Origin: an uncultured Anaerolineales bacterium
Lineage (GTDB): Bacteria > Chloroflexota > Anaerolineae > B4-G1
DNA: 62,462 bases
Assembly (NCBI GenBank): GCA_964528475.1
Contig: CAZGSX010000004.1
Coordinates: forward strand, 1-62,462
Direction of reading: 5' to 3'
Within the stretch, counting starts at the first letter, position 1, and every line of letters begins with the position of its first letter. Below are positions 20,465 through 34,621 of this stretch, in pieces. The notes under the pieces were generated by a model. It worked only from the letters and a program-made list of their open reading frames with translations. It had not been told where the DNA came from and made no database searches. The position numbers and the translations under genes are program-made.

Positions 20465-20749
20465 TCAATCGCCTTCGAAGTAGTAGAGCGACGGAATCTC
20501 CTCAAACGCAGCCCGGAACGCCGGCTTCAGCCGGTCGTAGGCCCACGCGACCTGTTCGTCCTGCATGTGTGGATCATCCAGGAGGTACCTGACCAGGCGA
20601 GATGCATTGATCCCACCGCCGACGTCCTCCCCCTGCTGCAACAAGGTCCCAACGGCCCCCTTCAGCAACGCGGGTGTCACGCTAGATCTCACTGCCTCGA
20701 CCTTTTCCATCACCTCTTTATTCATCATCTGCTGATCTGGCTCCTTCAC
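20465..20749 (-). CDS. hypothetical protein (Cys-free, 94 aa), last gene of the redox island
   Basis: ORF lies 45 nt downstream of the glutaredoxin-like gene on the same strand. No family recognised. Confidence 0.5.
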   Translation of the reverse strand: MKEPDQQMMNKEVMEKVEAVRSSVTPALLKGAVGTLLQQGEDVGGGINASRLVRYLLDDPHMQDEQVAWAYDRLKPAFRAAFEEIPSLYYFEGD

Positions 20750-20794
20750 AACACGAGCTCATCTCCCGACCAACGGTCGGACGACTCACACCTT

Positions 20795-21013
20795 TCAGGT
20801 GCCGTGAAACCCAACCTCCACGCGGTGGTCGGGCCAGACGATTGTCGGCACCTCCCCGCGACCCCCATTCAGCATCAGCATCTCGTGAAGCCGCCGAGGA
20901 CGCAGTTCCACGTCGTAGGAGACGTAGTCACGGCCCTCGCGGTCCAGCTTCCGAAGCAGCGCCCGAGTGTGCGGGCAGCCGCGCTTTCCGTAGACCTCTA
21001 TCTGTTCGGACAT
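20795..21013 (-). CDS. glutaredoxin/NrdH-like small redox protein (monothiol CPHT site)
   Basis: 72 aa. Has beta-alpha-beta thioredoxin-fold layout with IEVYGKRGCPHT at the active-site position and a cis-Pro context (VPTIV). SD GGAGGTG. Confidence 0.7.
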   Translation of the reverse strand: MSEQIEVYGKRGCPHTRALLRKLDREGRDYVSYDVELRPRRLHEMLMLNGGRGEVPTIVWPDHRVEVGFHGT

Positions 21014-21069
21014 AGCACCTCCGTACCGGCAGAGCCTAAACCCATCTCATCCGAGCACTCCTAGGACTG

Positions 21070-21089
21070 ATATGCATTGTGACGCATAT
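21070..21089. promoter_or_regulatory. 6-8-6 palindrome ATATGC-N8-GCATAT (candidate ArsR-type operator)
   Basis: ATATGC (21070-21075), 8 nt, GCATAT (21084-21089), about 57 nt upstream of the glutaredoxin-like start. The architecture is identical to the site on the arsR promoter (34574-34593). Confidence 0.4.
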
Positions 21090-21097
21090 CGGTTGGC

Positions 21098-21139
21098 AAA
21101 AAAAGGGCACTCCGAAGGAAATAACCGCCAGGAGCACTC
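21098..21139 (-). terminator. possible intrinsic terminator after the GcvH-like gene
   Basis: Minus strand: GAGUGCUCC, 17-nt loop, GGAGUGCCC (one mismatch, two G-U pairs), followed by seven U. Confidence 0.35.
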
Positions 21140-21255
21140 ACCGACCTGACATCTACGACTTGACTAGGCCGTGACACATCCCGCACCACCCCCCAAGAGA
21201 TGAATCCTCTGGGCATGAAACAGGAGACGCGCCACGGCTTTCCTCCCCCGACGAT

Positions 21256-21600
21256 CTAGATAGGATCCTCGTCCATCAGGCTGCCGAGCTCTGACGCGTC
21301 GGCAATCTCTATCTTAACGATCCAACCGTCCCCCTCAGGATCGTCGTTGATCAGCTCAGGAGTATCAAGCAGCGCCGTATTGAGCTCGGTGATCACACCG
21401 CTAACCGGTGCATAGAGATCCTGCGCGCTCTTGATGGACTCTACCGCCATGAACATCTCGCCCTGGGTAACTTCCTCACCCACCTCAGGGAACATAACCT
21501 CGATGATGTCCCCCAACTCGTCCGCCGCATTCGCCGAAATCCCAACTGTGGCGATGTTGCCGTCAACATTCGCGTATTCGTGGCTCTCTGCGTACTTCAT
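21256..21600 (-). CDS. glycine-cleavage H-like lipoyl carrier protein (LbpA-like by context)
   Basis: 114 aa. Lipoyl-lysine motif MAVESIKSAQDLYAPVSGV followed by DGWIVKIE. It is not next to gcvT/gcvP and is embedded in a sulfur-relay cluster. Confidence 0.85.
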   Translation of the reverse strand: MKYAESHEYANVDGNIATVGISANAADELGDIIEVMFPEVGEEVTQGEMFMAVESIKSAQDLYAPVSGVITELNTALLDTPELINDDPEGDGWIVKIEIADASELGSLMDEDPI

Positions 21601-21748
21601 CTTGGCTCCTTATTGCTTGCGTGCTTAGGTGCCCTAGAGGTACGTAGTCAACTGTCTGGGACACCCCACTGCCCATCAGCCGGTCTCGGCCTGGGTGGCA
21701 TGCCTGCGGGGGAACCAGCGGGAGGCCGATTCACCCCGCACATCTTCC

Positions 21749-22018
21749 TTACGTGATCGCTTGCTCTTCGGCGACGATCAGATCAACCAGTTCCGAGTAG
21801 CTAATGAGTTTCACATTAGCGCTCTCTGCCGGATAACCACGAGCGCAGAAATCCAGCTCGAGGGCGCACACGTCCGCCTGGACGTCCCGTACTTCGTTCG
21901 TCACGGCCCAGAACACGCCGTCTTGAATCAAGACCACGCAGTCATCCTTCTCTGCGCACTCAAGCTTCACCTTCTCGATAGGATGATCCACTCCGTACTT
22001 AATCAACACCAGCGCCAT
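21749..22018 (-). CDS. DsrH/TusB-like sulfur relay protein
   Basis: 89 aa. Has VVLIQDGV, ALELDFCARGY and ISYSELVDL, parallel to TusB LLLQDGV, ALNEDLIARGL and IDYTDFVRL. Confidence 0.75.
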   Translation of the reverse strand: MALVLIKYGVDHPIEKVKLECAEKDDCVVLIQDGVFWAVTNEVRDVQADVCALELDFCARGYPAESANVKLISYSELVDLIVAEEQAIT

Positions 22019-22031
22019 ATGACCCCCTCCC

Positions 22032-22388
22032 TTACACGAAAATCACGTTGTCGAAGCCGTGGAAGAACTCCGACAGCGATTCCTTGTCCAGCACCTGAGC
22101 CTGATATCCAGGGTCAACATCCTCGACCCCAAATCGCTCCATGTCCTCTCTGACTGCATAGACGGGGGTCTCAAAGCGCTTGACGAATCTCTGGACCATC
22201 TTCACCGGCAACAAGCCGCACTTCTCTGGGCACGTCTCTTGAGAGAGGGTAACGACGGCTGCATCCATAAGCAGTACCGCTGGCTCGAGATCCTCCCCAT
22301 ACATGCCGAACGCGGTTCGAAACGCCTCGTTCACCCAGATCGATCCCACAGGTGCCTGATACACGACGAACACGACCTTCTTATCCAT
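22032..22388 (-). CDS. DsrF/TusC-like sulfur relay protein
   Basis: 118 aa. DsrE-fold N-terminus (VVFVVYQAPVGS) and C-terminal DNVIFV, as in TusC DVILRF. Confidence 0.75.
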   Translation of the reverse strand: MDKKVVFVVYQAPVGSIWVNEAFRTAFGMYGEDLEPAVLLMDAAVVTLSQETCPEKCGLLPVKMVQRFVKRFETPVYAVREDMERFGVEDVDPGYQAQVLDKESLSEFFHGFDNVIFV

Positions 22389-22401
22389 ACGTTGTCTCCT
22401 C

Positions 22402-22758
22402 CTACGCCATCAGGCTGATGAATCGATCGCTCGTGCTTATCAGCTCGGCCAACTCAGGCAACCCCGAAGGAGCCGATCCCTCAATGATCATGTCTTCGGT
22501 AACGCCCCGATAGTCCATGCAGATGCCGCAGATGTCCACCTTGAGTCCCTTCTCTGCGATCATCGTCTCCAGGATCTTTGGAATGTTCCGATCACTACGA
22601 ACTGGCTTCACCTGAGAGTTGGCTGCAAGGATTGCATCACTGAACAGGAAGATCCCCACCTCGTGCCCCTTCTCCAGGGCAGCATCCGCGATCTTGATGG
22701 CAGTATCCAGATCTTGCTGCGAATACGGTTGCACCATCGCTTGAATTGTGATTCTCAT
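22402..22758 (-). CDS. DsrE/TusD-like sulfurtransferase
   Basis: 118 aa. The active-site Cys context VDICGICMDYRGV aligns with TusD NICVAAALRRGV. Confidence 0.8.
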   Translation of the reverse strand: MRITIQAMVQPYSQQDLDTAIKIADAALEKGHEVGIFLFSDAILAANSQVKPVRSDRNIPKILETMIAEKGLKVDICGICMDYRGVTEDMIIEGSAPSGLPELAELISTSDRFISLMA

Positions 22759-22770
22759 AGGTCTCTATCC

Positions 22771-23760
22771 CTAGTCCCTGAAGAGGATCCAGGCCATGCC
22801 CCAGTTGCCCAATATGAAGAACACCGAAGCGATCAGGGAGGAAATGGCCAATTGCGGAACGCCGGTGAGGAAGTGCCCAATGTTGCATCCTCCTGCGGTC
22901 GAAGCTCCAAGCCCCATCAGCATACCGCCGACCAAGACCTGCACGTACGTGATTGGACTCCTTGGCATACGTAGCTTGAATTCCTTGGTCAGCACGGCGG
23001 CCACAGCGGCGCCGAGTACCGTGCCGATGATCAGCCATCCGCCCCAATTCAGTGGCGCGTTGTCGGTGAATCCGCTCAACACGTTGACCCACCCGGAGGT
23101 GATCCCGAGGCCATACATGCGGCCCGTTGGGATGCTAGTCACAAATCCCACGCCTCCCAGAAGCGCCAACAGTACCGAGGCCACTTTCCAGTCCAGTTTG
23201 GTCTTCCGGTCAGTGGTCTTGGTGCCGAACGCATACAGAAGGAAGAGGGCTGCCAAGATGAGCCCCGGTATCCAAGGATTGAGGCCCAGCACCGACGCCA
23301 GGGTTGGCCCAGATTCCTCTACATAGTACGTCGGGTTATTGGAGGCGCTAATGCTGAACTGTCCGAACCAGTTCTTCCACCAGTTCAATGCGCCCGAGCC
23401 AGTGGCAGAAGCCGTCAGACCAAGGCCAAGGGCCGCAAGCCAGGCGGTGGTCATCCCCTCGCCCACCCGATAGGTGGTTCCAGATGCGCAGCCAGCAGCC
23501 AAGACCATTCCAACGCCAAATATGAGTCCCCCGACTATGTTCGCCGGTATGTTAAGTGGCATCGGATTCATCACCATCCATCCGAATTGTGACAACAGCA
23601 AGAAGATCACGATCTGCAGCGCCAGGGTCAAGACAGCCAGCTTCATCAGGTAGTTATCGCGAAAGATGAGCACGTCCCTGAAAGCGGAGTTGAAGCAGAT
23701 CCGGCCTTGCTGCAGGAGCGCGCCGAATGCGAGCCCCACGATCAATCCCGTCCAAACCAT
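22771..23760 (-). CDS. YeeE/YedE family sulfur-compound (thiosulfate-type) transporter
   Basis: 330 aa, multi-TM. The three conserved Cys loops of the family are present (GRICFNSAF, AAGCASGTTY, TAGGCNIGHF). ATG at 23760 has SD AGAGAGGAG. Confidence 0.9.
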   Translation of the reverse strand: MVWTGLIVGLAFGALLQQGRICFNSAFRDVLIFRDNYLMKLAVLTLALQIVIFLLLSQFGWMVMNPMPLNIPANIVGGLIFGVGMVLAAGCASGTTYRVGEGMTTAWLAALGLGLTASATGSGALNWWKNWFGQFSISASNNPTYYVEESGPTLASVLGLNPWIPGLILAALFLLYAFGTKTTDRKTKLDWKVASVLLALLGGVGFVTSIPTGRMYGLGITSGWVNVLSGFTDNAPLNWGGWLIIGTVLGAAVAAVLTKEFKLRMPRSPITYVQVLVGGMLMGLGASTAGGCNIGHFLTGVPQLAISSLIASVFFILGNWGMAWILFRD

Positions 23761-23906
23761 GTTATGTTGACTCCTCTCTTGTGAATTGAATGAAGTGTGA
23801 TCGTCAAAACCACCATGCACGGACAAAAACACTCGAAGAGCCTTATATGCTCAACCCGCCAAGTGGACCGCTACACGTGATACGATCACGAAGCCCAACA
23901 AAGGGA

Positions 23907-24149
23907 CTACTTAGTGACCTTGACGTAGATGTTCCACTCCGAGTTGCCTACCTCTTCTATCTCGAGGACCTCGCTTCCCGCCTTTCGCACCGTCTCGGGG
24001 ATGCGTTCCTTGGACATTGGATAGTCAACCTGGATCATGATGATATCTCCGTCTTTGCCCTTCTTGACGGCCCTCTTTGCCTCGACGTCGGGTATCGGGC
24101 ACACCTCACCGCGCACATCAATCGTCTTGGTGGGTTCATACGCTGCCAT
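23907..24149 (-). CDS. tusA: TusA/SirA-like sulfurtransferase
   Basis: 80 aa. Signature DVRGEVCPIPDVEAKRAV (CPxP motif). SD AAGGAG. Confidence 0.9.
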   Translation of the reverse strand: MAAYEPTKTIDVRGEVCPIPDVEAKRAVKKGKDGDIIMIQVDYPMSKERIPETVRKAGSEVLEIEEVGNSEWNIYVKVTK

Positions 24150-24189
24150 TGTATTTTCTCCTTATCAACTCTGATTCTGCCGTAATGTA

Positions 24190-25298
24190 TGCGCCTTGCA
24201 TCACCATCGCTTGTTCAAGCTCCGCCATCGTCATTCCATCCTCACATAGGCCCCCCCATCGAAGTACCTGTGTGCTCCCTTCAATTGTCGTCTCGGATTC
24301 CCACAGCAGAGAGGAGAGGCAGGACGACCCTGTGACCAGACGGCCGTCTGTCTCCCCTGGAGAATCCAGCTGATGCACGCTGTAGTGCATTTTACATCAA
24401 GAATCATACTTTTCCAAGTCCGGCGGCTACCACAGCCGAACCGCTGCATTCCCAGAGCGACGTGGGACCGAACCTGCCATATGTCCACTCCGTTCGCTCA
24501 CCGCATCCTTGCGCAGCAAGCTGAGGCGGCCCCCTAGTTACTGCTTGGCTCTCAAGAGCAAATGTGGAACAAGTGGGCCGTCCGCCATCCTTGCAGTTGG
24601 TTTTGCTGAGCAGTCTGTATAGGTCCACAGCCTACAGCTTTGGGGATCTGTTACCTTCAGCTGCTGTCTTGATTGTCCCTGATTCAGGCCTGCGCGCCCA
24701 GCTGGACCGCGTCCCAGGGGCGGATCGAGCTTGGTTAGTACGGACGGGAGATACTCCACCAGCGTGACCTCCACGCCGCGCCGATTCAACGCCTCGGCTA
24801 TCTCCAGGCCGATGTACCCACCGCCCACCACCACGGCGGAGGCTGGCGACTGCTCTACGAGGTAGTCGCGCACGGCGAAGCCACCACCCATCGTGCGCAG
24901 GAAGAGCACCCCCTTCTGCTCCAAACCGTCGCTGGGCGGGTGCGCCGGGACGGCTCCGGTGGCAATCACGAGGTTGTCATACGATATGCAGCGCCCCCGC
25001 CCGGCGTCGTCCATTGCTGTGACCGTCTTGCCATTCGCGTCGATGATTTGCGCAGTGTGCGCCAGCAGCAGGTGGGATCCCCCGGGCCTCGATGTCTCTC
25101 GCCTTGCGGTGGGCCAGGTCGCGCCAATGGGCGACCTGGCCGCCCAGCCACGGCAGTCCGCAGATGAAGTAGTTGGGTTACCGGTCAGCGACGACCAGGG
25201 TAACCGCGCCGCGGGTTTACCTCCCGCGCTCGCAGGGCGGCGCTGATGCTCGCATCACTTCCGCCGATGATCAGCAGGTGACCGTCCTCTCTGCCCAT
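24190..25298 (-). pseudogene. decayed CoA-disulfide reductase/NADH oxidase-family flavoprotein with a rhodanese-like tail
   Basis: The N-terminus HLLIIGGSDASISAALRARE is followed by frameshifts. TAA at 25180-25178 stands where Tyr is expected before PNYFICGLPW (the redox Cys motif). A middle block is intact: YDNLVIATGAVP...VVVGGGYIGLEIAEALNRRGVEVTLVE. Further shifts and stops follow, then a degenerate rhodanese-like stretch (RLVTGSSCLSS...VLRWGG). About 1.1 kb remains of an expected roughly 1.6 kb. Confidence 0.75.
24389..24417 (-). promoter_or_regulatory. candidate promoter of the tusA-yeeE-dsrEFH unit
   Basis: Minus strand: TTGGAA (24417-24412), 17 nt, TAAAAT (24394-24389). It sits in a local AT-rich patch inside the decayed oxidoreductase gene. 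Confidence 0.45.
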
Positions 25299-25361
25299 GA
25301 TCTCCCACCCCCAGCTCTCACCAATTGGCCCTCGATCGTCACGCCCTCAAGGAGTGTGTGA

Positions 25362-25988
25362 TTACCGTACCCCACTTGAAACCCCTCTCACGCACCTTCT
25401 CCAGCTTGTCGAGCGACTCTGGACTGTCCAGCACCAGCCGGTAGCGGATCTGAAGCATCGCTGGGGTTCTTCGCGGCGGTCACCCTCTACTTTTGCGCGT
25501 ACGCCGTCCACGTGCAGACGCATCTTCTCGCCCAGCGCGTTAACGTTAGTGATCTGGCAGACTGGTGGGGCTGCCACCAGCGTCTCCAAGGCCGACTTTA
25601 CGCCCGGCCCGCCCTCAACCCAGGTCTCCAGGGGGATGCCAGGCCGGACCACCAATCCGCCGGTGCTGTGCGGCCCGTAGGTAACCTTATGCCCGGCGAA
25701 GGCAAGGAGATCAATCCCCTCGCCTCCATGTCGATAGGACACGCCCCGGGCTTCTGCCCCGCGTCCACCAGAAACAGGATATCGTGATTCCGGCAGATCC
25801 CCTCACTGCGGGCACAGGGAGAATAGCGCCCAGCGGCTCTCGTCGGCGATGCCCAGCGCCTCCTCCTCACGCCTGTGGCCGCCCCGCCCCGGTGTCGCCC
25901 CCACGTCGCGCATGAAGTGAACCACCGCGCGGTAGACGGCCTCCGGCTTCGGCCAGCTGGTCGCCGCCTTATCCAGGTAGACTGTCAC
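25362..25988 (-). pseudogene. decayed class V aminotransferase (NifS/cysteine desulfurase-like)
   Basis: The N-terminus VYLDKAATSWPKPEAVYRAV...GRGGHR ends in a stop after about 60 codons. Other frames carry HDILFLVDAGQKPGACPID and IDLLAFAGHKVTYGPHSTGGLVVRPG, including the PLP-Lys context. About 135 internal codons are missing. Confidence 0.7.
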
Positions 25989-26044
25989 GTCGTTCTCGCA
26001 CCCTTGACTGCCGCTGGATCTGCACTGGCGACCCCGTATCTCAC

Positions 26045-26581
26045 CTACACCTGAAGTATGTCTCCGAGTTCATTGATACGTTCGGCAAGGCGCCTCGCTG
26101 CTTCAATGGCCTCCAAGTCTTGTTGGATGTCTCCGGCGTTGAATGCAATGCCGGAGACCCCTCTGTTAGCTGGGATCATCTCGTGCTTGAGAAGGAATGC
26201 GTTGATTGCAGTGATCGCGCTTTCTGCACCGTACCGTCTACCGACCACGACTGCACCGCCAATTTTGTTTCTCAGCTTTCCTCTGATCGACCAAGAGCGA
26301 TCGATGAAGGCCTTGAGTTGAGCCGAGACGTTGTTGAAATAGACGGGGCTGCCCAAGACTATCGCGTCCGCAGCGAACAGCATCCGCGTCAAGACCTGGG
26401 TCATACCATCGTCAACTGTGCAGTCATCCAGCCGCTGGCAAGCCCAGCAAGACTCGCAGGGCTCGATCTGATAATCGGTCAGCTTCACTAACTGACCACC
26501 AGTGATCGGTTGCATGAGCTGAAGCAGATAGTCTGTGTTGCTATCCTTCCTCGGACTTCCGGAAATGTACAAGACTCTCAC
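26045..26581 (-). CDS. iron-sulfur flavoprotein (Isf-type NADPH-dependent FMN reductase fold)
   Basis: 178 aa. Flavodoxin-like ISGSPRKDSNT plus the compact 4Fe-4S motif Cx2Cx2Cx5C (CESCWACQRLDDC). Confidence 0.85.
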   Translation of the reverse strand: MRVLYISGSPRKDSNTDYLLQLMQPITGGQLVKLTDYQIEPCESCWACQRLDDCTVDDGMTQVLTRMLFAADAIVLGSPVYFNNVSAQLKAFIDRSWSIRGKLRNKIGGAVVVGRRYGAESAITAINAFLLKHEMIPANRGVSGIAFNAGDIQQDLEAIEAARRLAERINELGDILQV

Positions 26582-26599
26582 CTATCACCACCTTGGACA

Positions 26600-27053
26600 G
26601 CACTGCATAGGATGTGAACGAGACGATCCGCTCTGCTCGGAGACCCTACCCTTGTTCGTTCATCATAGACTGCCGGATCACGACGCGTCACTGACTCTGA
26701 CTCCCTCTTCGAATCCCCCAGATGGCACATCGGTAGCCAGGTCCGGTCTCTCGGCTGCGCTCCGCACGCGGGGCAGTACCGCCCGGTAGAAGAAGTCCCT
26801 CGCACCCTCGACATTCGACCAGCGAGGCCACCACACCCAGCACCATGAACGTGACCGCCAGGCCAACGGCGAACGTCAGTGACAGTGTAAACGAACGGCG
26901 CCGCGACAACTCCACCGATCCACCTAAGTAGCCGATGATCAATGGGATCATCGCCACGTTGCAGGGACCGATGCTGGTGATCACCCCGCCCAGGAAGACA
27001 AGCCGGTAGGCTAGGCGGGAGCTCGTCTTTAGGATCTCAAGGTTGAAGGGCAT
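26600..27053 (-). pseudogene. truncated CcdA/DsbD-type thiol-disulfide transporter
   Basis: The first 70 or so codons match CcdA TM1-TM2 (FLGGVITSIGPCNVAMIPLIIGYL...FAVGLAVTFMVLGVVASLV). The frame then degenerates. Only about 450 nt are available before the next gene, against roughly 700 expected. Confidence 0.6.
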
Positions 27054-27059
27054 CGCACC

Positions 27060-27674: not shown

Positions 27675-29653
27675 ACCAGTGTAACCACCATCCAGCCGGC
27701 CAACAGGAAGAACAGCGCCGCCGTCGCCAGCTTGACCTTGGCCGTGTGTCGGTGGATGAGGAGACCCAGCTGCTGAGACGTCGTTCCGAAGTACGCCAGC
27801 ACGAAGACGACCACCAGCGGCAGAATGAACATCAGGTTGTAAAGCACCAGATAGAACCCGGCCTGCGCCTGCATCTCCGGAACGCCTAGGACGAAGAGAA
27901 TGGTTGGGAGGTAGACCTGTCCGGTGCAAGCGAGCTCGATGAGCGAGACCACAACCCCCGTGACAAAGGTCACCGGCACGAAGGCCCTCGCGTCGGCCCT
28001 CTCGCGGATCGCCTGGTTAACTCGCCGACGTAGCCGGGTCGGCATGGCGAGACGCATCTCCGTCGCCTTCCCGGTACGAGCCTGCCACCAGTCGTAGAGG
28101 CTGCCGGCAGCCAGGAGGAGACAGAGCGCCGCGGTGAAGCCGTAGATCCAGCGGCTCACGGCATCCAGGAAGGGCAACGCGGCCAGAAACTTCAGCACGC
28201 CGAAGCCGACCCCGAGATACGTCAGGAAGACACCTAGCGCAAACGCTCCGCCGGCCAGCAGCACCTGCCGACCCTCCCGACCCACAAAAGCCAGATAGGA
28301 GATGAAGAAGACTAACGTCGCGAACGCGCAGGGGTTGAGCCCGTCCACGAGCCCCGCGGCGAGCACCGTGATCAGGCTGAAGGAACGGAAACGCTCGATA
28401 ATGCCCGAGACCGCATCGCCACCGGTCACGTCCGACCCTGAACATATCGGCTCGGCGCCGGTCTCCGCGTAGCGGGCAAGCAGATCTTCCAGGCTGTTGG
28501 TATGCAGCTCCTCCCCTACCAGCGCCTCATCACCGACGAAGATAGCCGGTGCGGTCAACCGCTTGCCCACCGGTACGCCGGCCCTTTCCCCCAGGCGTTC
28601 AGACAGTGGCGCGTCCTCGCGGACGTCGAGCGTGCAGACGTTCAGCTGCGGATACCGCTTCCGTAGGTAATTCAAGGCGAGCTGTACTCGGTCGCAGTCT
28701 GGGCAGCCCACCTGGTAGAAGTAGGCTACGTGGATGGGAGCCCCATTCGCCTCCTCCGGTGAGGCAGCCTCAGGCGCGGGCGTCGGTTCCACAACCGGGA
28801 GACCCACGCCGCCCATCTTCAAGTACGACTCCACCAGCTGCGGCAGCTCCGCCCGCGCCTCCTCCTCTCCCGCCAAGACGTGGTCGCCGATGAAAATCAC
28901 AGGCATCTCCGCCCGCGTCACACCGTAGCGCCGCTCGAGCGTACGTAAGAGATTGTAGTTCTCGGTCGAGCCCTCGACGTCCCGCTGGTCGACAACGAGC
29001 CTCGATCCATAGGTCTTCTCTAGAGGCGCGATGACCTCCTCCTCCACTGTCACGCATTCGGGGCACAGCCGGTCGTAGAAGAAGAGGACATGGGCCACGG
29101 CATCTTTCGTGCCTACGACCAGGTCGTCGTCACACTCAGGGCAATATTTGGCCGTCGCCGTAGGGCCCGGGGTGGGCTCATCTACGCTCGGCGTCGGCGT
29201 CCTCTCCAAGCCGTCCAACAGTCCGGGGATGTCGGGGTAGACCACGCCGCCCGCCGCTAGATGCTGCTCCACTAGCCTCGGCAGTTTCTCTGCGATCTGC
29301 CCGGAACCGGTCAGGACCGTGTCGCCGATGAACAACATAGGCACGCCCTGCCGTCCCGCCGGCACTTGATAAGCCTCGAGCGCGGCCAACCACACCTCGT
29401 AGCTCGCTGGATCGGTGATCTCGATAAGCCGGATGACCAGGCGATCACCAAATTTCTCGTCCAGCGAGGGCAGGTGCTCCTCCATCACCTCGTGACAGTG
29501 CGGACAGCCTTCAGACCAGAATAGAACCGCCCGAACCACCGGGTCATCGGCGCGGACGGCAAGGACCGTCCCAGCGAACAGGAGAGTCAGAAGAAGACCC
29601 ACAGACGGTCTCAGCCGTCTCGCCTGGAGCGATGCCACTGGCTTGTCGTTCAT
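27671..29653 (-). CDS. exported triple thioredoxin-fold protein fused to a DsbD_2-like membrane domain
   Basis: Signal peptide, then three paralogous about 100-aa domains (WSEGCPHC, RLCPECV with an extra YCPEC, QVGCPDC). Each ends in a (I/L)F(I/V)GD...L(V/L)E motif. A 6-TM domain follows with GLNPCAF and ELACTGQVYLP. ATG at 29653 has SD GAGAGAGG. Confidence 0.8.
   Translation of the reverse strand: MNDKPVASLQARRLRPSVGLLLTLLFAGTVLAVRADDPVVRAVLFWSEGCPHCHEVMEEHLPSLDEKFGDRLVIRLIEITDPASYEVWLAALEAYQVPAGRQGVPMLFIGDTVLTGSGQIAEKLPRLVEQHLAAGGVVYPDIPGLLDGLERTPTPSVDEPTPGPTATAKYCPECDDDLVVGTKDAVAHVLFFYDRLCPECVTVEEEVIAPLEKTYGSRLVVDQRDVEGSTENYNLLRTLERRYGVTRAEMPVIFIGDHVLAGEEEARAELPQLVESYLKMGGVGLPVVEPTPAPEAASPEEANGAPIHVAYFYQVGCPDCDRVQLALNYLRKRYPQLNVCTLDVREDAPLSERLGERAGVPVGKRLTAPAIFVGDEALVGEELHTNSLEDLLARYAETGAEPICSGSDVTGGDAVSGIIERFRSFSLITVLAAGLVDGLNPCAFATLVFFISYLAFVGREGRQVLLAGGAFALGVFLTYLGVGFGVLKFLAALPFLDAVSRWIYGFTAALCLLLAAGSLYDWWQARTGKATEMRLAMPTRLRRRVNQAIRERADARAFVPVTFVTGVVVSLIELACTGQVYLPTILFVLGVPEMQAQAGFYLVLYNLMFILPLVVVFVLAYFGTTSQQLGLLIHRHTAKVKLATAALFFLLAGWMVVTLV
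28427..29545 (-). repeat. three tandem thioredoxin-fold domain repeats inside the fusion CDS
   Basis: Approximate repeat bounds are 29545-29222, 29104-28772 and 28729-28427. Shared pattern: hydrophobic beta strand, CPxC, then PMLFIGDTVLTG / PVIFIGDHVLAG / PAIFVGDEALVG, then LPRLVEQHL / LPQLVESYL / LEDLLARY. Confidence 0.7.
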
Positions 29654-29829
29654 CGAACCTCTCTCACGCAATCAGACACTACGGTAGAAGTCACGCACTG
29701 GATCAACTCCCAAACAGAGCCGCACAACGGAGAACAGACTAAGATCTCTACGTCTCCTCTCTGCAGATCGATGTCGCAACAGCCGCGCCCACTGTCTCCA
29801 GTTTCCAGGGTAACCGACGGCATCATCCT

Positions 29830-30250
29830 ACGACCAGCGCACCGGGGCCTGCCCCCAGAGGCGCCCAACGGATGCGAGCAAGTTCAAGCAACGCACCTTG
29901 GCGCGCAAGCACCGCCGGAACACCGACCACGCTTCCGGCAGATCCGCTCTCTCCCGATAGTCGTCCTTTGCACGTTCACCCGGTCTGAGCGAAACCGCAT
30001 GAACAAGGCACAATTCGTGGACGGGATGCAACATTCCTGTGCTGCGCACCCCAGGTTGCACCATAGTCGGATTCGTGGATTGCAGCAAGCATCTTCTCGA
30101 TCTCTGCCTCACTAAAGCTTCGCCCTACGAAACTGACCCTCACAACCCCCCGTGAGAAGCGACGTTGGCGTACGCGGGCGGCATCCCAAACGGACTGCTC
30201 CGCCGGGGCTCCTGCCGCCTGGCTGGAAACCTCGTAGGCTCGAGAGGATC
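29830..30250 (-). pseudogene. possible relic of a tyrosine recombinase (integrase)
   Basis: One frame reads ...RSFSEAEIEKMLAAIHES... and an adjacent frame reads ...AVSLRPGE...ADLPEAWSVFRR. These resemble the start of the catalytic domain (LTxEEIxxLLAA ... TGLRxGE ... DLxxGxLxVRR). The frames are broken and the C-terminal HxxR/Tyr part is absent. Confidence 0.3.
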
Positions 30251-30293
30251 TAGAGTGATCTGGACGGCGGCGGCTGGGTTAGCTGCGAGCTGC

Positions 30294-30560
30294 CTACTTC
30301 AACCCCGCCTCGCGCAGAGCGCCCACCAGACTCTCGTGGCTAGGTGCCAAGCCAACAAACTTGACCAACTCCCCCACGACCAGCGCAGGTGCGTTGCCGA
30401 TGGCATATTCCTCCCACTCGTTGTCGCCTGGTCCCGTATGGAAGGTGATGGTCACCTGATCGCCAAATTCGTCCTCAATGTCTCTGAGCAGCCGCTTGAC
30501 TGCCACACCTCCCGAGCAGGGAGGTATGGAGACAAATGCTTCGATCGTTACTTGAGACAT
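30294..30560 (-). CDS. mini-thioredoxin paralog 4 (CSGG, single Cys)
   Basis: 88 aa. The start overlaps paralog 3 by 13 nt, with SD GGGAGG. Its layout matches its neighbours (VSIPPCSGGVAV...APALVVGE...LVGALREAGLK). Confidence 0.7.
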   Translation of the reverse strand: MSQVTIEAFVSIPPCSGGVAVKRLLRDIEDEFGDQVTITFHTGPGDNEWEEYAIGNAPALVVGELVKFVGLAPSHESLVGALREAGLK

Positions 30561-30817
30561 AGACCAGCCTCCCTGAGTGCATTGTTGAGCGTGGCCTCGC
30601 TGGGGCACATGCCCTCAATACGGATGGACCCATTGACGACCGCCGCCGGGACACAGAAGAGCTGGTAGGCCTCGAACTTCTCCAATCCCTCGGCGCCTTC
30701 GTAGATGGTGAGCTCCAAATCATCTTCATACCTAGCTGCGACGCGCTCTGTTAGCTCAATGATCGCCACACAGCCTGGGCACGGGGGATCACCGCTGAAA
30801 ACCTCCAGTTTCACCAT
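30548..30817 (-). CDS. mini-thioredoxin paralog 3 (CPGC)
   Basis: 89 aa. Has SGDPPCPGCVAI, VPAAVVNG and the C-terminal LNNALREAGL shared with paralog 4. Confidence 0.8.
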   Translation of the reverse strand: MVKLEVFSGDPPCPGCVAIIELTERVAARYEDDLELTIYEGAEGLEKFEAYQLFCVPAAVVNGSIRIEGMCPSEATLNNALREAGLCLK

Positions 30818-30820
30818 ATC

Positions 30821-31078
30821 CTAGTCTCCTAACTTGGTCTCAATGACGGACTTCAGCCTGTCGGCCGGTACTACCTTGCCTTTGCCAAGGACTTCGTCGC
30901 CGATGACGACCAGTGGGGTGGTCATAAGCCCATACTGCTCGGCCTCGGGTGCCAAGGCGTCGAGTTCCACAACCTCGACCCGACCGGGAAACTGGTCGGC
31001 TGCCTCTTGAGCCTCACGCTTCGCCCTCCTGCAGTTGGCGCAGGGCGGGGTGGTGCCAAAGACCTTGATCTGAAGCAT
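30821..31078 (-). CDS. mini-thioredoxin paralog 2 (CANC)
   Basis: 85 aa. Has GTTPPCANCRRA and TTPLVVIGDEVLGKGKVVP. Thioredoxin_3-like. Confidence 0.8.
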   Translation of the reverse strand: MLQIKVFGTTPPCANCRRAKREAQEAADQFPGRVEVVELDALAPEAEQYGLMTTPLVVIGDEVLGKGKVVPADRLKSVIETKLGD

Positions 31079-31127
31079 GCTCTTTCTCGCTCCCTTGTTC
31101 CTATAGTCGCGACTCTCGCCGGACGGT

Positions 31128-31373
31128 TCACAAACCCCGTGCCGTTCGGATCCAATCAGCGATCTCCTCCTTGCGAGGTATGCGCCCCGTTGCCTTCACC
31201 TCCTCGTCGATGACGAGGGCAGGTGTGCTCATCACGTCATAGGCCAGGATGGCGTCCATGTTCTCCAGCTTGGTCACGGTGACCTCAACACCCATCTCGT
31301 GAGCCGCTTCCCGAGCCAGAGCCTCCACTCGCTTGCACTTGGGGCATCCCATCCCCAGAATCTTGATCTCCAT
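31128..31373 (-). CDS. mini-thioredoxin paralog 1 (Thioredoxin_3 / redox-active disulfide protein 2 type, CPKC)
   Basis: 81 aa. Has KILGMGCPKCKRVE and STPALVIDEEVKATGRIP, the canonical form of this family. SD GGGAGGAAG. Confidence 0.85.
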   Translation of the reverse strand: MEIKILGMGCPKCKRVEALAREAAHEMGVEVTVTKLENMDAILAYDVMSTPALVIDEEVKATGRIPRKEEIADWIRTARGL

Positions 31374-31835
31374 GGCAGTTGCTTCCTCCCTTCATGTCTT
31401 GCCGGTTGACTCTTGCTTGCACCAGATTCTCGTTTGATTCGGTGCACACCGTCTCTCTTTTCATTCGCCCCTTCTATCGATCGTCATAGAAGGCAGGCAC
31501 TTTCTTTAACGCACATCCCGACAACATCCCGACGCTACATCCGGTTAGCACTCTGCATTGTCCCCCAGAGTCCCTGTGCAGTCGTTAACAGGGCCCGGGC
31601 CGATCCGCCTCTACGACCTTTCCGAGCCCGGTGGCTATGTGTACGGTGACAGTTGTGAGGCGCGTAGGTCCATACGCTTCCTGGCGGGCCGGGTCACTGG
31701 TTAAGGTTGCTGCCACTCGCCCCGCATGTCTGAACCGCAACGCCGCTCTAGCACTCAATCGCGCCCAGAGCCTCCCGGCAACCCGCACTAAGGCGCAACC
31801 TGATAGCGCTCGTCGCAGAGCGCAAGTGACAAGAC

Positions 31836-33317
31836 TCACTTTGTCTCCTCCGCCGTTACCAGAATCCGGCGATGACGACTGGTCCACGCAGCGAGAACGG
31901 CCAGCGACGCGAGAGCCCCGGCCAGAATCGCTCCGATGACCCAGCCGCTCATGCCCTCCAGCCAACCACCAAACAGCAGCCCTGCCAGCGTACTGAAGAT
32001 GGTCACCAGCACGACGTACACCGCTGTTTTCTTTCGCCCGATGACCGTGTTGGTGATCAGGATTGACTGCAGGCTCAGCTCCGGATCGGCCAACAGGTAA
32101 GCCAGTAGGACCCCGCGATGCATGCCCAGCGAGAGGAACGTCCGTGCGATGGGGACTTCCACCAGCGTGGGGAAGTACATAAAGACGCCGAAGAGCACCC
32201 CAGCCAAGTTAGCCAACACTGTGTTCCGACCAGCGAGGGTCTCAATCCACGTCCTGGGGATGATGGCCCGGGCCATGCCTGCCAGAAAGACACCTACTAA
32301 CAGCAGGGGGATGATCTGCTTCACGAAGCGCCACATCTCCCACAGCCATTCGCGTATCTGATATTCGTCGAAGGCATTAATCGCCATCCACCACACCGCT
32401 CCAATGAGCACGACCTCGGCCGCCAAGCGACCAGACATGCCAATCGTCAGGCCCGTCTCTAGTGTCGTCACGTTGAACGACGCGACGAGCAGGGTTAGCG
32501 TGATTAGACCTAGCGCGCCGTACGTCCAGCGGTTGAACCCGCGATCCACGTCGTTCAGCCCCAGCCACGCCGTGACTGCGATGAGAACCAGCAGACCGAT
32601 TAGGAAGACTCCGTGCACGCTCACGCCCTCGATGCCCATCGATGGATTCGGTGGCACCACTCCGTCTAGCCAAGTCTGCAAAGAGCTGGCCCACGATCCC
32701 GGCACGGTGAAGGTGGCGTAACTCCTCGTCAGAAGATCAACCTGCAACGTCCCCGCGATAAGCACGCCCAGTAGCAGGACGAAGAAGATCCAGGTGGATG
32801 CAGGAACACCGGCTCCTTGCACGAAGGCGTTCGCCTCATTGGTGGCTCTGTTATGTGCTCTGTCATCTTCGCGGAAGAACCAAGCCATGAGCATTCCGAT
32901 GCCGATGCCAAACACGACCGACAAAATCACCCGCGCGATGGCGATGTCCATGCCGATCATCGCGCCCGTGAACGTGATCGCTAGAATGTTGACCGCCGGA
33001 CCGACGAAGAGGAAGGTGATAGCTGGACCAAGCCCAGCACCCTTCTTGTAGATGCTGGCGAACAGGGGCATGATGGTGCACGAACAGACTGCCAACACGA
33101 AGCCGCCGATCGCCGACATGGGATAGGACAACCACCGTGGCGCATCCCGTCCGAGATACTTGGTGATCGCCTCTTTGGGGATTAGCGCTGCCAGCGCACC
33201 AGCGATGAAAAACGCCGGTAGCAAACACAACAGCACGTGTGCGGCCAGATAGGCTGCAAGGCTTCCCAAGCCTGCCTGTAGTAACATCCTTATCGTCTCC
33301 AGAATTGCCACGTTCAA
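31836..33317 (-). CDS. UPF0718/YraQ-family permease (ArsP-like CSC motif)
   Basis: 493 aa, multi-TM. Has LAVCSCTIMPLFASIYKKGAGLGPAITFLFVGPAVN, typical of the predicted-permease family usually paired with ArsR and Thioredoxin_3 genes. Confidence 0.85.
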   Translation of the reverse strand: MNVAILETIRMLLQAGLGSLAAYLAAHVLLCLLPAFFIAGALAALIPKEAITKYLGRDAPRWLSYPMSAIGGFVLAVCSCTIMPLFASIYKKGAGLGPAITFLFVGPAVNILAITFTGAMIGMDIAIARVILSVVFGIGIGMLMAWFFREDDRAHNRATNEANAFVQGAGVPASTWIFFVLLLGVLIAGTLQVDLLTRSYATFTVPGSWASSLQTWLDGVVPPNPSMGIEGVSVHGVFLIGLLVLIAVTAWLGLNDVDRGFNRWTYGALGLITLTLLVASFNVTTLETGLTIGMSGRLAAEVVLIGAVWWMAINAFDEYQIREWLWEMWRFVKQIIPLLLVGVFLAGMARAIIPRTWIETLAGRNTVLANLAGVLFGVFMYFPTLVEVPIARTFLSLGMHRGVLLAYLLADPELSLQSILITNTVIGRKKTAVYVVLVTIFSTLAGLLFGGWLEGMSGWVIGAILAGALASLAVLAAWTSRHRRILVTAEETK

Positions 33318-33386
33318 TCTCCTGATCTATCACTATCTTGTTGAATCACGGAAGCCGCTACGACCTGCGGCTATGCGATATTTCCG

Positions 33387-33826
33387 TCAGCCGCCAATCT
33401 CCTCAACGGCGTTGGGGGTCTTCTCTATCGCCTCGGCCGTGGAGGGGTTCCATGGGATCCAGCCAGACGACACCGTCGTCGAAGTCGACACCTGCGTCGC
33501 ACAGCGCATCCTTGAACATCTTGCGCTGCATCGTGGGAGCGCCACCGCCGACGATGAGCTTCGCACCCGACTTGGCATAGTCGTGCCAGAAGCTATCCCC
33601 GTCCTCCACACAAAGCTGCGGGCGAACGATATCGTACTCCACATCCAGTTCGTTGCGTACATAGTTCATGAGCGGCCATAGGTCCAACTCGTCAAATCAG
33701 GGCACTCGCCGGTGCAGATGCACATCATGAAGCCCGGCTTTCCGTCCTCGGCGATCTGATAGTCTACCTTCTCAGACTCAATGTCTCTCGGTGGACGTGT
33801 TGAACAGACGCTACCCCGCCACATCA
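33387..33826 (-). pseudogene. Cys-rich small protein gene, apparently frameshifted
   Basis: ORF a (MWRGS...GFMMCICTGECPD) stops at 33673. ORF b (33687-33403) continues in another frame as ...DLWPLMNYVRNELDVEYDIVRPQLCVEDGDSFWHDYAKSGAKLIVGGGAP... Adding one T to the T3 run (plus-strand AAA 33694-33696) fuses them as ...ECPDFDELDLWPL... A second shift near the 3' end is possible. Loose resemblance to FlpD/MvhD-type Fe-S modules. Confidence 0.45.
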
Positions 33827-33969
33827 GCAGCGTCACGCCCGGGGGGCGGGCGCTTCAGCCCCGGTCCCTGCGAGCAATGGCAGAGGCAGCACCACGTATG
33901 CGTGGACACCCTCACAGGCGGGTTAGCTCTTGGCACTCGTCCTGCACTCCTGGCGAAAGCGCTTTGCAC

Positions 33970-34173
33970 TCAGCGCTGCTTCCTCTCGCAGTCGATGCAG
34001 AGGTCCGTCTCCCGGTTCGTGCGGTATTCCTTGCCGCAGCCGGGGCACGTGACTCTGCGCAGGCCATCGTTCTTCTTCGGCCGCGGTCGCAGCTCCGGCG
34101 GGAGAGCGCCAAAACCGTCTTGCAGGCACGTGCATTCTAGCGAAGCCTCCCTCTTGTCATCGCCGCTGCTCAT
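33970..34173 (-). CDS. small zinc-ribbon protein
   Basis: 67 aa with CPGC...(13 aa)...CIDC. The ATG overlaps the arsR stop (ATGA), implying translational coupling. Confidence 0.6.
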   Translation of the reverse strand: MSSGDDKREASLECTCLQDGFGALPPELRPRPKKNDGLRRVTCPGCGKEYRTNRETDLCIDCERKQR

Positions 34174-34553
34174 ATCATCTCCCCCACGGGCAAACTCTCA
34201 CCGGCTCGCGCGCCACCGCTCTCCTTGATTGCCATCGCTTCGCAGCGTGGGCAGGAGCACGCCTCGACAGGTCCGCGCTCCGCCGGCGGCCCCAGTAAGG
34301 CCTCCAGCACTCTTTCGACACCGGGGTCATCAAGGCTGTAGTAGACGAACAACCCTTCTCGGCGATCGGTCACCAGGTCGGCGTCCCGGAGCTGGCTGAG
34401 TTGCTGAGAGACATAGGGCTGGGGACGACGCACGCGCCCCTGAAGGTGACAGACGCAGGCCTCGCCGAGCCGAAGCTCGTCCACTATCTGAAGCCGTACA
34501 GGATGGGAGAGGACCTGCAGGACGTCGGACACACGCTGATATCGATTGCTCAT
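34170..34553 (-). CDS. ArsR/SmtB family transcriptional regulator (alpha-3 CVC plus C-terminal CSCPRC)
   Basis: Winged-helix sequence LSHPVRLQIVDELRLGEACVCHLQG...SQQLSQLRDADLV. ATG at 34553 has SD GGAAGGAA. Confidence 0.9.
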   Translation of the reverse strand: MSNRYQRVSDVLQVLSHPVRLQIVDELRLGEACVCHLQGRVRRPQPYVSQQLSQLRDADLVTDRREGLFVYYSLDDPGVERVLEALLGPPAERGPVEACSCPRCEAMAIKESGGARAGESLPVGEMI

Positions 34554-34573
34554 GCTTATATTCCTTCCGGATA

Positions 34574-34621
34574 ATATGCAGCTCATCGCATATAGTATAC
34601 CCTCGTTGCTGCATTTGTCAA
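34574..34621 (-). promoter_or_regulatory. arsR-operon promoter with an abutting palindromic operator
   Basis: Minus strand: TTGACA (34621-34616), 16 nt, TATACT (34599-34594). This is immediately followed by ATATGC-N8-GCATAT (34593-34574), which covers the expected start site. Confidence 0.55.

Follow-up and report, generated by a model that had tools for sequence, protein, structure and literature searches.

Positions 1 to 62,462 of contig CAZGSX010000004.1 from an uncultured Anaerolineales bacterium (assembly GCA_964528475.1), analysed here and referred to as the window, carry a row of thiol and sulfur redox genes about 14 kb long (positions 20465–34621), all of them on the minus strand. Read in the direction of its genes, the row leads from an ArsR-type regulator to a cysteine-free protein of 87 aa, and it is divided here into four units: unit A, the block from arsR to ccdA; unit B, from the CcdA stump to tusA, with a set of genes for an Isf-type flavoprotein, a NifS-like protein and a PF04060 iron-sulfur (Fe-S) protein; unit C, from tusA to gcvH; and unit D, comprising a second operator, a glutaredoxin-like gene (grx) and the 87-aa gene (hyp). 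Families were assigned from a six-frame listing of open reading frames (ORFs) and from profile searches against Pfam and NCBIfam. Related sequences and loci retrieved for comparison are designated by L numbers, and their identities are given relative to the window.

An initial annotation had joined these genes into one island in which an outward electron-export arm, a cytoplasmic persulfide-relay arm and a lipoyl carrier would stand under one regulator family. The profile searches and the ORF listing confirmed the genes at the places assigned to them, the familiarity of each module taken singly, and the partial decay of the region, in which pseudogenes and deletions were found. The integration itself fared otherwise. 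We consider it probable that the 14 kb constitute a lineage-specific, partly eroded row of separately conserved transcription units on an Anaerolineae chromosome, and no single integrated system. Both main arms, units A and C, are of known kinds, and the composite is not a unit. The novel part is the operon in which the yeeE–tusA–dsrE (YTD) genes are followed by a short gcvH gene, in some genomes with an lpd gene in between, as a variant of the described YTD cluster.

Units A and C in related genomes

Conservation was assessed around the triple-thioredoxin fusion protein of unit A (Fus666), for which 82 loci were sampled, and around YeeE of unit C. Genes for TusA, YeeE, DsrE, DsrH or the short GcvH occurred at none of the 41 fusion loci with at least 6 kb of downstream sequence. 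Conversely, at the 21 loci whose YeeE is close (identity of 45% or more), no gene for the fusion, CcdA or the membrane thioredoxin occurred, and only one of them (L092) had ArsP permease or mini-thioredoxin (Trx3) genes, 7 kb away. For 47 loci the sequence upstream of the fusion reached 4 kb or more, and in 17 of them it contained ArsP and/or Trx3 genes. The proposed gathering of the export arm, the relay arm and the lipoyl carrier under one regulator is not supported by these counts of 0/41 and 0/21. The initial annotation had itself named an observation that would speak against it, namely that relatives never show the modules adjacent, and this is largely what was found for units A and C.

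The order ArsR–ArsP–Trx3 (one to four copies)–fusion–membrane thioredoxin–CcdA recurs in L002, L009, L011, L020, L033, L042, L044, L045, L063, L081 and L082, and ArsR, the membrane thioredoxin and an intact CcdA of 225 aa are found again together with ArsP/Trx3 at the fusion loci. In L082 (74% identical), ArsR–ArsP–four Trx3–fusion–thioredoxin (Trx)–CcdA forms an isolated block, with an ECF transporter gene on one side and a methyltransferase gene on the other. The order TusA–YeeE–DsrE–DsrF–DsrH is shared by the window and at least 15 related loci. With the short GcvH it forms a self-contained operon in at least six contexts besides the window, and its flanks there vary, among them genes for toxin-antitoxin systems and helicases, for lipid synthesis, for a kinase, for a sulfhydrogenase-like NiFe hydrogenase, and for methyltransferases and Fe-S proteins. 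In the window, the G+C content over positions 21000–24000 (tusA to gcvH) is 0.557, against about 0.60–0.62 on either side. The differing flanks and the lower G+C content therefore point to unit C as a self-contained, mobile operon.

Longer parts of the row are retained in the nearest relatives. L081 (87% identical) has the order ArsP–four Trx3–fusion–Trx–CcdA–74-aa gene–Isf–(NifS remnant)–FeS_assembly_P–MetB12-like–PF04060–grx–hyp–ArsR2. L083 has NifS–PF04060 and, further on, PF04060–TusA–YeeE–DsrEFH–GcvH–operator–PIG-L–Fer4–AFOR–ThiS–Fer4–grx–hyp, and in L002 (64% identical) unit A is followed a few kb on by PF04060–PIG-L–Fer4–AFOR–ThiS–Isf. Because these relatives keep either A–B–D (L081, L002) or B–C–D (L083), the ancestor of their clade probably held the whole A–B–C–D row, to judge from gene order. 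The simplest history would be that the YTD–GcvH block entered the variable region between PF04060 and grx in one sub-lineage, and that the lineage of the window then suffered deletions. The low G+C content of the tusA–gcvH block agrees with a later arrival. Shared order of this kind is synteny by descent within a small clade and therefore weak evidence for function. The shared parts of the row in the nearest relatives and the operator at both ends speak partly for the single island; arms A and C are adjacent in none of the relatives sampled.

A predicted thiosulfate operon and its short GcvH

Unit C begins with tusA (23907–24149), which encodes a YeeD/TsuB protein of the TusA family, 80 aa long, with a single cysteine, Cys17, in a CPIP motif. 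The protein matches Spirochaeta thermophila YeeD (8J4C) over its full length (E = 1.5e-33; about 75% identity, counted from the alignment) and shares its Cys17 (VCPIP); the E. coli-type NCBIfam TsuB model was not passed (43.9 vs 147.5). The next gene, yeeE (22771–23760), encodes a YeeE/TsuA transporter of 329 aa (Sulf_transp match; NF052577, 512 bits against a cutoff of 400), which aligns with S. thermophila YeeE (StYeeE, 6LEO) over residues 1–328 (E = 1e-146; about 67% identity), so placing its Cys22, Cys91 and Cys292 against C22, C91 and C293. The three conserved cysteines of StYeeE reportedly line the transport pathway (Tanaka et al. 2020). There follow dsrE (22402–22758; 118 aa), whose Cys77 in ICGICMDYRG was equated with the published active-site Cys67/Cys78 by motif alone, dsrF (22032–22388; 118 aa) and dsrH (21749–22018; 89 aa; match to TM0979, E = 1e-24). 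In Thermotoga maritima, TM0979 is the orthologue of DsrH and TM0983 that of TusA. The profile searches thus bore out the identities proposed for TusA, YeeE, DsrE, DsrH and GcvH. That of DsrF stood on its position in the operon and on its resemblance (61–82% identity) to the corresponding middle genes in relatives, its profile support being weak (TusC, E = 3e-4). The type I/TusBCD models failed (53 vs 89; 20 vs 79–94), in agreement with a complex that is not of type I. A promoter-like site, TTGGAA-17-TAAAAT, precedes tusA (24389–24417) and is directly followed by the palindrome ATGCAC-N6-GTGCAT (24376–24393), which was considered as a tusA operator and dropped because it is not conserved in L083 or L084.

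The close homologues of these proteins have been characterised: YeeE (TsuA) imports thiosulfate and YeeD/TusA binds and decomposes it at Cys17, which is catalytic for thiosulfate decomposition in S. thermophila YeeD (PMC11073785). In T. maritima, the yeeE/dsrE/tusA cluster TM0979–TM0983 is induced 42.6-fold by thiosulfate (PMC9431562), and yeeE–tusA–dsrE with two small genes has been described as the YTD cluster, lately recast as DsrEFH type II, for which the authors apply a hidden Markov model (HMM) score above 80 bits (PMC13293266). Unit C resembles the YeeE–YeeD pair of S. thermophila and E. coli in the adjacency of the two genes and in the retained catalytic cysteine, and differs from it in the addition of DsrE, DsrF, DsrH and the short GcvH. 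It resembles the YTD/type II clusters and TM0979–TM0983 in its genes, their order, the presence of the DsrE cysteine, and the poor recognition of the two small subunits by standard HMMs. Published type II clusters come mostly from Desulfobacterota and Nitrospirota with DsrAB and DsrC (PMC13293266). Within the window's own cluster neither dsrAB nor dsrC was seen; no search for them was made in the remainder of the window or of the genome. On the strength of these homologies, unit C is predicted to be an operon for the uptake and processing of thiosulfate or sulfane sulfur. Beside the YTD cluster of Thermotoga profunda (L086, 10059–10619) and of the Thermotogota-like L088 (10113–10841, minus strand) lies a gene for a winged-helix/TusA fusion, a candidate sulfur-sensing regulator.

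The last gene of unit C, gcvH (21256–21600), encodes a short GcvH of 114 aa that has a lipoyl lysine, Lys57, in an ESIK motif and no cysteine. It scores as a true GcvH (NF002270, 142 vs 117; TIGR00527, 129 vs 116), and Lys57 is invariant in the alignment of the short proteins. These form a small clade of 114–115 aa, at least 68% identical to the window protein, canonical GcvH reaching at most 58%. Every clade member examined follows TusA–YeeE–DsrEFH (the window, L083, L084/85, L087, L167/168, L169/170 and L171/172), and in none of the seven contexts is gcvT or gcvP adjacent to the short gcvH. Furthermore, an lpd gene lies between dsrH and gcvH in L084/85 and L169/170 (with the redox centre GGTCTNVGC and the motif HPHPTL), and Lpd is also encoded next to the YTD cluster in L088. 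The literature searched on the YTD cluster contains no mention of GcvH or Lpd additions. In L169 (370–9192) and L170, genes for an ArsR-type regulator and for a sulfhydrogenase-like NiFe hydrogenase of four subunits come after YeeE–DsrEFH–Lpd–short GcvH. A gene for PIG-L, an LmbE-like deacetylase, stands beside the short gcvH in L083 (8397–9131), L171 (1075–1761) and L172 (6464–7150) and has been lost from the window; L171 and L172 share the same GcvH, so that these loci represent two distinct arrangements, with PIG-L on either strand.

A mechanism can be outlined in which YeeE would import thiosulfate, which Cys17 of YeeD/TusA would bind and decompose, and DsrEFH would relay the sulfane sulfur, DsrE-family proteins holding persulfide on a conserved cysteine. 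The lipoyl arm of the short GcvH would act either as the dithiol that frees the sulfur as sulfide or as the next carrier, and Lpd, encoded within the operon in some relatives, would keep the lipoate reduced with NADH. The net reaction would be an NADH-dependent conversion of thiosulfate to sulfide and sulfite, for assimilation or as an electron sink. The thiosulfate:dithiol sulfurtransferase reaction is classical chemistry, and the steps assigned to YeeE, YeeD Cys17, DsrE persulfide, GcvH lipoate and Lpd are drawn from homology to characterised proteins. In the window, the nearby gene of the CoADR type, which might have supplied another reductase as in T. maritima, is defunct. We tentatively propose, as a possibility that falls well short of an even chance, that tusA–yeeE–dsrE–dsrF–dsrH–(lpd)–short gcvH encodes an undescribed lipoyl-dependent pathway of cytoplasmic thiosulfate or sulfane turnover in anaerobic Anaerolineae, with an Lpd-linked version in Thermotogota-like genomes, in which a GcvH paralogue cycled by Lpd and NADH replaces DsrC or CoA-dependent reductases.

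The nearest described parallel is the sHdr–LbpA system, in which a GcvH-like lipoyl protein is likewise encoded with TusA and DsrE-family sulfurtransferases (PMC6067878, PMC11094781). LbpA has two conserved cysteines, near its N- and C-termini, that GcvH lacks (PMC6067878). Identity of the short GcvH with LbpA was considered, the lipoyl lysine being conserved, and rejected because the window protein has no cysteine and because hdr genes are absent; the protein scores as a true GcvH. Neither hdr-like genes nor genes for an LplA-like ligase occur in the window operon or at seven related loci, and the host here is presumably a fermentative anaerobe and no sulfur oxidiser.

The ArsR unit, its putative operators and a probable selenoprotein

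Unit A opens with arsR (34170–34553). Translation probably begins at position 34553, where an ATG stands behind the ribosome-binding site GGAAGGA; another ATG, further upstream at 34586, falls inside the operator. The encoded 127-aa repressor is a winged-helix protein of the ArsR/SmtB type (HTH_5 match; NF033788, 88 bits against a cutoff of 55), 74% identical to the ArsR of L017, with a CVC motif in helix alpha-3 and a C-terminal CSCPRC. In As(III)-responsive ArsR of the R773 type, the CVC in alpha-3 is the metalloid site. It reads GEACVCHL here and ELCVCDL in R773, and the third cysteine of R773 is absent from the window protein. The best PDB matches were SqrR/BigR (6O8K, E = 1e-13; 3PQJ). 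A persulfide sensor of this kind was nevertheless set aside because the sensing cysteine pair, C41 and C107 in SqrR, is not conserved: the position of C41 is occupied by Asp, and the BigR model reached 61.6 against a cutoff of 155.

The gene for a Zn-ribbon-like protein (33970–34173; 67 aa with CTC, CPGC and CIDC) overlaps the arsR stop codon in an ATGA, as had been noted together with the CVC and CSCPRC motifs, and has homologues of 60–67% identity in L002, L011, L015 and L044. The cysteine-rich gene that follows (33387–33836; unnamed family) is present as annotated and proved to be a pseudogene with two frameshifts relative to an intact 122-aa homologue in L017 (2570–2938); in other Anaerolineae (L017 and also L016, L011, L007, L015 and L044) this protein is part of the ArsR–ArsP operon. 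Searches of Pfam and NCBIfam gave no family for the Zn-ribbon protein, for the 87-aa protein, for the 74-aa gene from L081 or for the cysteine-rich protein, in the last case also when its intact L017 copy was used. The ArsP_1/UPF0718 permease (31836–33317; 493 aa; E = 1e-66), 89% identical to its counterpart in L081, carries the predicted CSC motif at residues 78–80. Of the four tandem mini-thioredoxins that had been announced, three passed the Pfam threshold: copy a (31128–31373; CPKC), of the MTH895/ArsE family (100.7 bits with TIGR00412, cutoff 62), and the Thioredoxin_3 copies b (30821–31078; CANC) and c (30548–30817; CPGC). Copy d (30294–30560; 88 aa), with a single cysteine and no CxxC, stayed below it at 17 bits and is a paralogue of copy c, to which it is 35% identical. 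About 100 bp upstream of copy a, a perfect palindrome with 7-bp arms, CTTCTAT-N8-ATAGAAG (31471–31492), lies within the gap that holds a DGC-domain remnant; its sequence is unlike the ArsR operator.

The fusion protein Fus666 (27671–29653; 660 aa) was searched as the longest ORF, of 666 aa, from the TTG at 29671. It consists of a signal anchor, three thioredoxin-fold domains (CPHC, CPEC, CPDC) and a CcdA-like domain of six transmembrane (TM) segments with cysteines in NPC and ACTGQ, and its stop codon overlaps, in an ATGA, the gene for a membrane-anchored thioredoxin (27060–27674; 204 aa; CVQC), so that both the predicted export of the fusion and its ATGA overlap agree with the initial description. 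The thioredoxin domains, modelled by AlphaFold at a predicted local distance difference test (pLDDT) score of 80–90, match PDI, ERp57 and archaeal PDO, and they were placed outside the membrane because of the N-terminal signal anchor. The hydropathy profile agrees with six TM segments. Since the membrane part was modelled with too little confidence (AF2 confidence 40–60) to compare folds, a profile–profile alignment to CcdA was used instead, and it gave an hhalign probability of 85.5% (E = 5.7e-6) with both cysteines aligned, at 22% identity and with no Pfam match; the domain would accordingly be a remote CcdA homologue. Like DsbD/CcdA with ResA- or TlpA-type partners and like ScsB, Fus666 would combine a two-cysteine membrane domain (TM1, TM4) aligned to CcdA with thioredoxin folds on the outer side and cytoplasmic thioredoxins as presumed donors; its domain order differs, with three N-terminal thioredoxin domains and no C-terminal gamma domain. 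The family comprises more than 1,200 homologous database clusters and at least 586 confirmed loci in species-representative genomes; nearly all of the matches listed are from Anaerolineae/Chloroflexota, often with several copies per genome, and several metagenome-assembled genomes have at least two paralogues on different contigs. A gene for a PF04060 Fe-S protein is a frequent neighbour of Fus666, often immediately upstream (12 of 80 loci; L004, L006, L008, L013, L040 and others).

These components recall the accessory genes that recur in ars operons, namely an ArsR with CVC, ArsP, an MTH895/ArsE-type thioredoxin, an exported thioredoxin and CcdA (Castillo and Saier 2010, PMC2963123). The correspondence extends to the vicinal cysteines of the ArsP_1 permease, and in L148 the set is combined with ArsC. 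The window differs in lacking arsC, acr3, arsB and arsM and in having four mini-thioredoxins and the Anaerolineae-typical fusion of three thioredoxin domains to a CcdA-like domain. From family knowledge, to which the direction of electron flow and the permease substrate also owe their assignment, we infer that unit A would answer metalloid or thiol stress by exporting a thiol-reactive compound and by holding the thiols of the envelope in the reduced state. The CVC-type ArsR would leave ATATGC-N8-GCATAT, and the ArsP permease, the four small thioredoxins, the fusion and the membrane thioredoxin would be made. The vicinal cysteine pair of the permease suggests export of a thiol-reactive compound; the small cytoplasmic thioredoxins would pass electrons through the CcdA-like cysteine pair of the fusion to its outer domains, and these would keep the thiols of envelope proteins reduced or correctly paired. 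Lipoyl-dependent Ohr/OsmC peroxidases are established enzymes. The ArsR–ArsP operons of L007, L011, L015, L016, L017 (1938–5423) and L044 add a ferredoxin, a 149-aa GcvH-like protein and an OsmC-like protein, with LipA in L016 and L017 and an Lpd-like protein in L015 and L044, a set that looks like a lipoyl-dependent peroxidase (antioxidant) module under ArsR control. The OsmC, GcvH-like, LipA and universal stress protein (USP) genes added in relatives suggest thiol or oxidative stress in general.

Exactly two copies of the palindrome ATATGC-N8-GCATAT are present in the window, where 0.07 would be expected by chance, and they lie near the two ends of the row, as the initial annotation had observed. 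One copy (34574–34593) directly follows the -10 hexamer of the strong promoter-like site of arsR, TTGACA-16-TATACT (34621–34594; site and operator together 34574–34621). The other (21070–21089) lies after unit C and 57 bp upstream of the start of grx; before tusA no operator-like sequence was found. In 1.2 Mb of related loci there are six further exact copies, of which five stand either immediately before arsR or in the arsR–arsP interval (L002, L011 twice, L017, L020). The sixth directly follows gcvH in L083, a position homologous to that of the second operator in the window; in L083 genes for PIG-L, a ferredoxin, AFOR, ThiS and another ferredoxin come next, and only afterwards grx–hyp. The window lacks these ~4.2 kb, and its second operator therefore now lies directly before grx. 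When the search was relaxed to three mismatches, it returned 13 matches, against 11.9 expected by chance. The two operators would most simply define an ArsR regulon with two promoters, and not bracket one operon. A further strong promoter-like site upstream of arsR, TTGACA-17-TATAGT with a TG extension, is accompanied by a degenerate operator, TATATG-N8-CATATA (34979–35027, minus strand). No recognisable gene lies in the ~370 nt between it and the arsR promoter, and tblastx detected no homology to the region upstream of arsR (34594–35706) in any retrieved locus; the orphan site may be the relic of a lost gene or perhaps belong to an untranslated leader.

Downstream of the second operator, the gene that had been called a monothiol glutaredoxin (20786–21013; N-terminal CPHT) very probably encodes a glutaredoxin-like selenoprotein of the UXX-star type. 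Its 3' end reads GFHGT-UGA-AAG-GTG-UGA, that is, GFHGT-U-K-V-stop, with the in-frame UGA at 20797–20795, and the ending UGA-(K/T)V-stop is kept in four homologues (L081, L083, L015, L049). A hairpin, TCCGACC-GTT-GGTCGGGA (20764–20781), starts 13 nt after the UGA (the 17th nt counted from its U) and is a candidate selenocysteine insertion sequence (SECIS); it is conserved, with 6–7 bp and one compensatory pair. Moreover, the UXX-star model NF041212, which describes selenoproteins with a glutaredoxin fold and a C-terminal selenocysteine followed by two residues and the stop codon, was matched in all but its last four positions and scored just below its cutoff (61.5 vs 66) because the ORF is cut at the UGA. 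The conserved U-x-x-stop ending, the hairpin and the model match are thus the grounds for the assignment. The cysteine-free hypothetical protein at the end of the row (20465–20728) is present, 87 aa long, and belongs to a rare family, whose genes in L081 and L083 always follow that for the selenoprotein; a scan of 1.84 billion representative proteins gave only 29 small relatives (clusters) and no functional clue. The pair of genes probably belongs to the ArsR regulon.

Remnants, flanks and competing explanations

Units A and C are set apart by decayed genes. A deletion of about 517 bp joins the CcdA stump (residues 1–79; 27053–26817; a DsbD_TM fragment) at residue 79 to residue 31 of the following 74-aa gene (26815–26696), the two together occupying 26696–27053. 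The flavoprotein gene that follows is intact (26045–26581; 85% identical to L081); an FMN_red match and a CX2CX2CX5C motif favour its reading as Isf-type, and a sequence search of the PDB linked it to no solved Isf. The NifS-like class-V aminotransferase gene (25362–25988; Aminotran_5 fragment) is a pseudogene: compared with its homologue in L012, which stands beside the fusion, it is frameshifted and has lost about 300 nt from its interior; the intact NifS of L083 was tried as its counterpart and gave no match. Of the CoADR/NADH-oxidase-type gene (24712–25300), about 190 N-terminal residues remain, with a clean Pyr_redox_2 match at 24712–25014 (approximately residues 100–190) and stops in the part upstream; the C-terminal part is gone. 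The remnants of CcdA, NifS and CoADR that had been recognised earlier were therefore all found, and the rhodanese part ascribed to the last could not be confirmed. Absent from the earlier gene list were the 74-aa gene fused to the CcdA stump, a PF04060 Fe-S-domain remnant of about 50 codons (24551–24703), whose counterparts precede tusA in L083 and grx in L081, a DGC-domain remnant (31603–31728) in the 462-bp gap between the permease and mini-thioredoxin a, and a USP remnant (29906–30025) in the gap of 640 bp that precedes the fusion. Because these large events sit in an otherwise clean assembly with long intact housekeeping ORFs, the decay is real, confined to this region and no general fault of the assembly.

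Homologues assign the window to the Anaerolineae (Chloroflexota), and the genes around the row are ordinary chromosomal ones, all intact. One flank has glpK, a major facilitator superfamily (MFS) transporter, an ATP-binding cassette (ABC) transporter and an H+-PPase; the other has TetR, queG and nusA–infB–nrnA–truB–ribF. The longest ORF of glpK (18507–20156, minus strand) extends N-terminally past the FGGY domain by ~45 codons; the gene probably begins near 20020, so that about 445 bp without homology lie before the 87-aa gene, and the gap between these two genes showed no detectable homology in any retrieved locus. Rfam searches at gathering thresholds and tRNA scans of the whole window returned no matches.

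Several observations weigh against a row of separate units. The supra-operonic linkage is partly conserved, L081, L083 and L002 keeping pieces of the same order, and L148 (1657–6861), a metagenomic sequence from a distant organism of lower G+C content, couples a unit-A-like operon to a YeeE-family gene in the row ArsR–ArsP–Trx–Trx3–Trx–CcdA–YeeE-like, followed after a gap of about 440 nt by ArsC. No convincing intrinsic terminator was found between the units (terminator-like sites are not enriched in the window) and all genes are on one strand, so that read-through is possible. The lipoyl carrier may have a real functional tie to the ArsR regulon, because other Anaerolineae hold GcvH-like, OsmC, LipA and Lpd genes inside unit A; the closest structural relatives of ArsR are the persulfide sensors SqrR and BigR, though their sensing cysteine is replaced; and Lpd, lipoate ligase and LipA are absent from the 62-kb window, so that the reductant of GcvH is assumed. 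The single strand, the identical operators at both ends, the A–B–D and B–C–D orders, the L148 row and the GcvH-like, Lpd-like, OsmC and LipA genes in the ArsR–ArsP operons of L007, L011, L015, L016, L017 and L044 would also suit the original view of the whole 14 kb as one ArsR-controlled island for reactive sulfur, selenium or arsenic-thiol compounds, with import through YeeE, a relay through TusA, DsrEFH and GcvH, and trans-membrane disulfide reduction by the fusion, CcdA and the thioredoxins. We nevertheless hold such an island to be rather unlikely, in view of the missing A–C adjacency among the sampled relatives (0/41 and 0/21), the pseudogenes and deletions between the arms, and the promoter-like site, lower G+C content and lack of an ArsR operator before tusA that mark unit C. 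Moreover, the closest YTD–GcvH relative, L167/168 (YeeE 90% identical), is flanked by lipid-synthesis genes, and the GcvH-like gene inside unit A of other genomes is another paralogue, 33–42% identical.

The remaining explanations concern parts of the row or its assembly. The best named matches of DsrE, DsrF and DsrH are TusD, TusC and TusB, and mnmA lies about 2 kb from the cluster in Thermotoga profunda, as would be expected if unit C were a TusA–TusBCD-type relay feeding the synthesis of tRNA 2-thiouridine or sulfur cofactors, with GcvH a mere neighbour. This is improbable, since the TusD and TusC scores fall far below their cutoffs (53 vs 89; 20 vs 79), the operon has no TusE/DsrC gene and in every case contains the gene for the YeeE transporter, thiosulfate induces its T. 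maritima homologue 42.6-fold (PMC9431562), and the short GcvH, with Lpd at some loci, is kept in the operon across seven contexts. The selenoprotein gene directly downstream, the best NCBIfam match of TusA to YedF and the YedE models that also match YeeE might instead suggest that the sulfur arm and unit D handle selenium, through YedE/YedF-like import and delivery for selenoprotein synthesis. YeeE, however, passes the TsuA equivalog model (512 vs 400) and fails both YedE models (138 vs 350; 59 vs 200), and the YedF score of TusA (44.7) is below its cutoff of 79, the protein being about 75% identical to the thiosulfate-decomposing YeeD of S. thermophila; with ~4 kb of other genes between the operon and the selenoprotein gene in L083, and with no selD, selA or selB nearby, a role in selenium delivery is very improbable. 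As for a chimera created during assembly of this metagenome-assembled genome, the metagenomic origin of the contig and the G+C dip over 21–24 kb would allow it, but homology to L083 continues on both sides of the YTD–GcvH block (the PF04060 remnant upstream; the operator and grx–hyp downstream), that to L081 spans unit A, Isf and grx–hyp in unchanged order, and the flanking housekeeping genes are intact, which makes an artefact scarcely credible.

As a row of separately conserved units, the composite is best taken as genome history, which spares effort on a false "super-operon". The conserved ArsR operator outlines a small predicted regulon that includes a selenoprotein, and Fus666 represents a large uncharacterised family that is probably central to envelope thiol maintenance in Anaerolineae. 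The addition of GcvH, or GcvH and Lpd, to YeeE–YeeD–DsrEFH offers a testable answer to how sulfur from imported thiosulfate could be released or transferred without DsrC and DsrAB. If true, the proposed pathway would be the second use of protein-bound lipoate in sulfur metabolism after LbpA, and one independent of sHdr.

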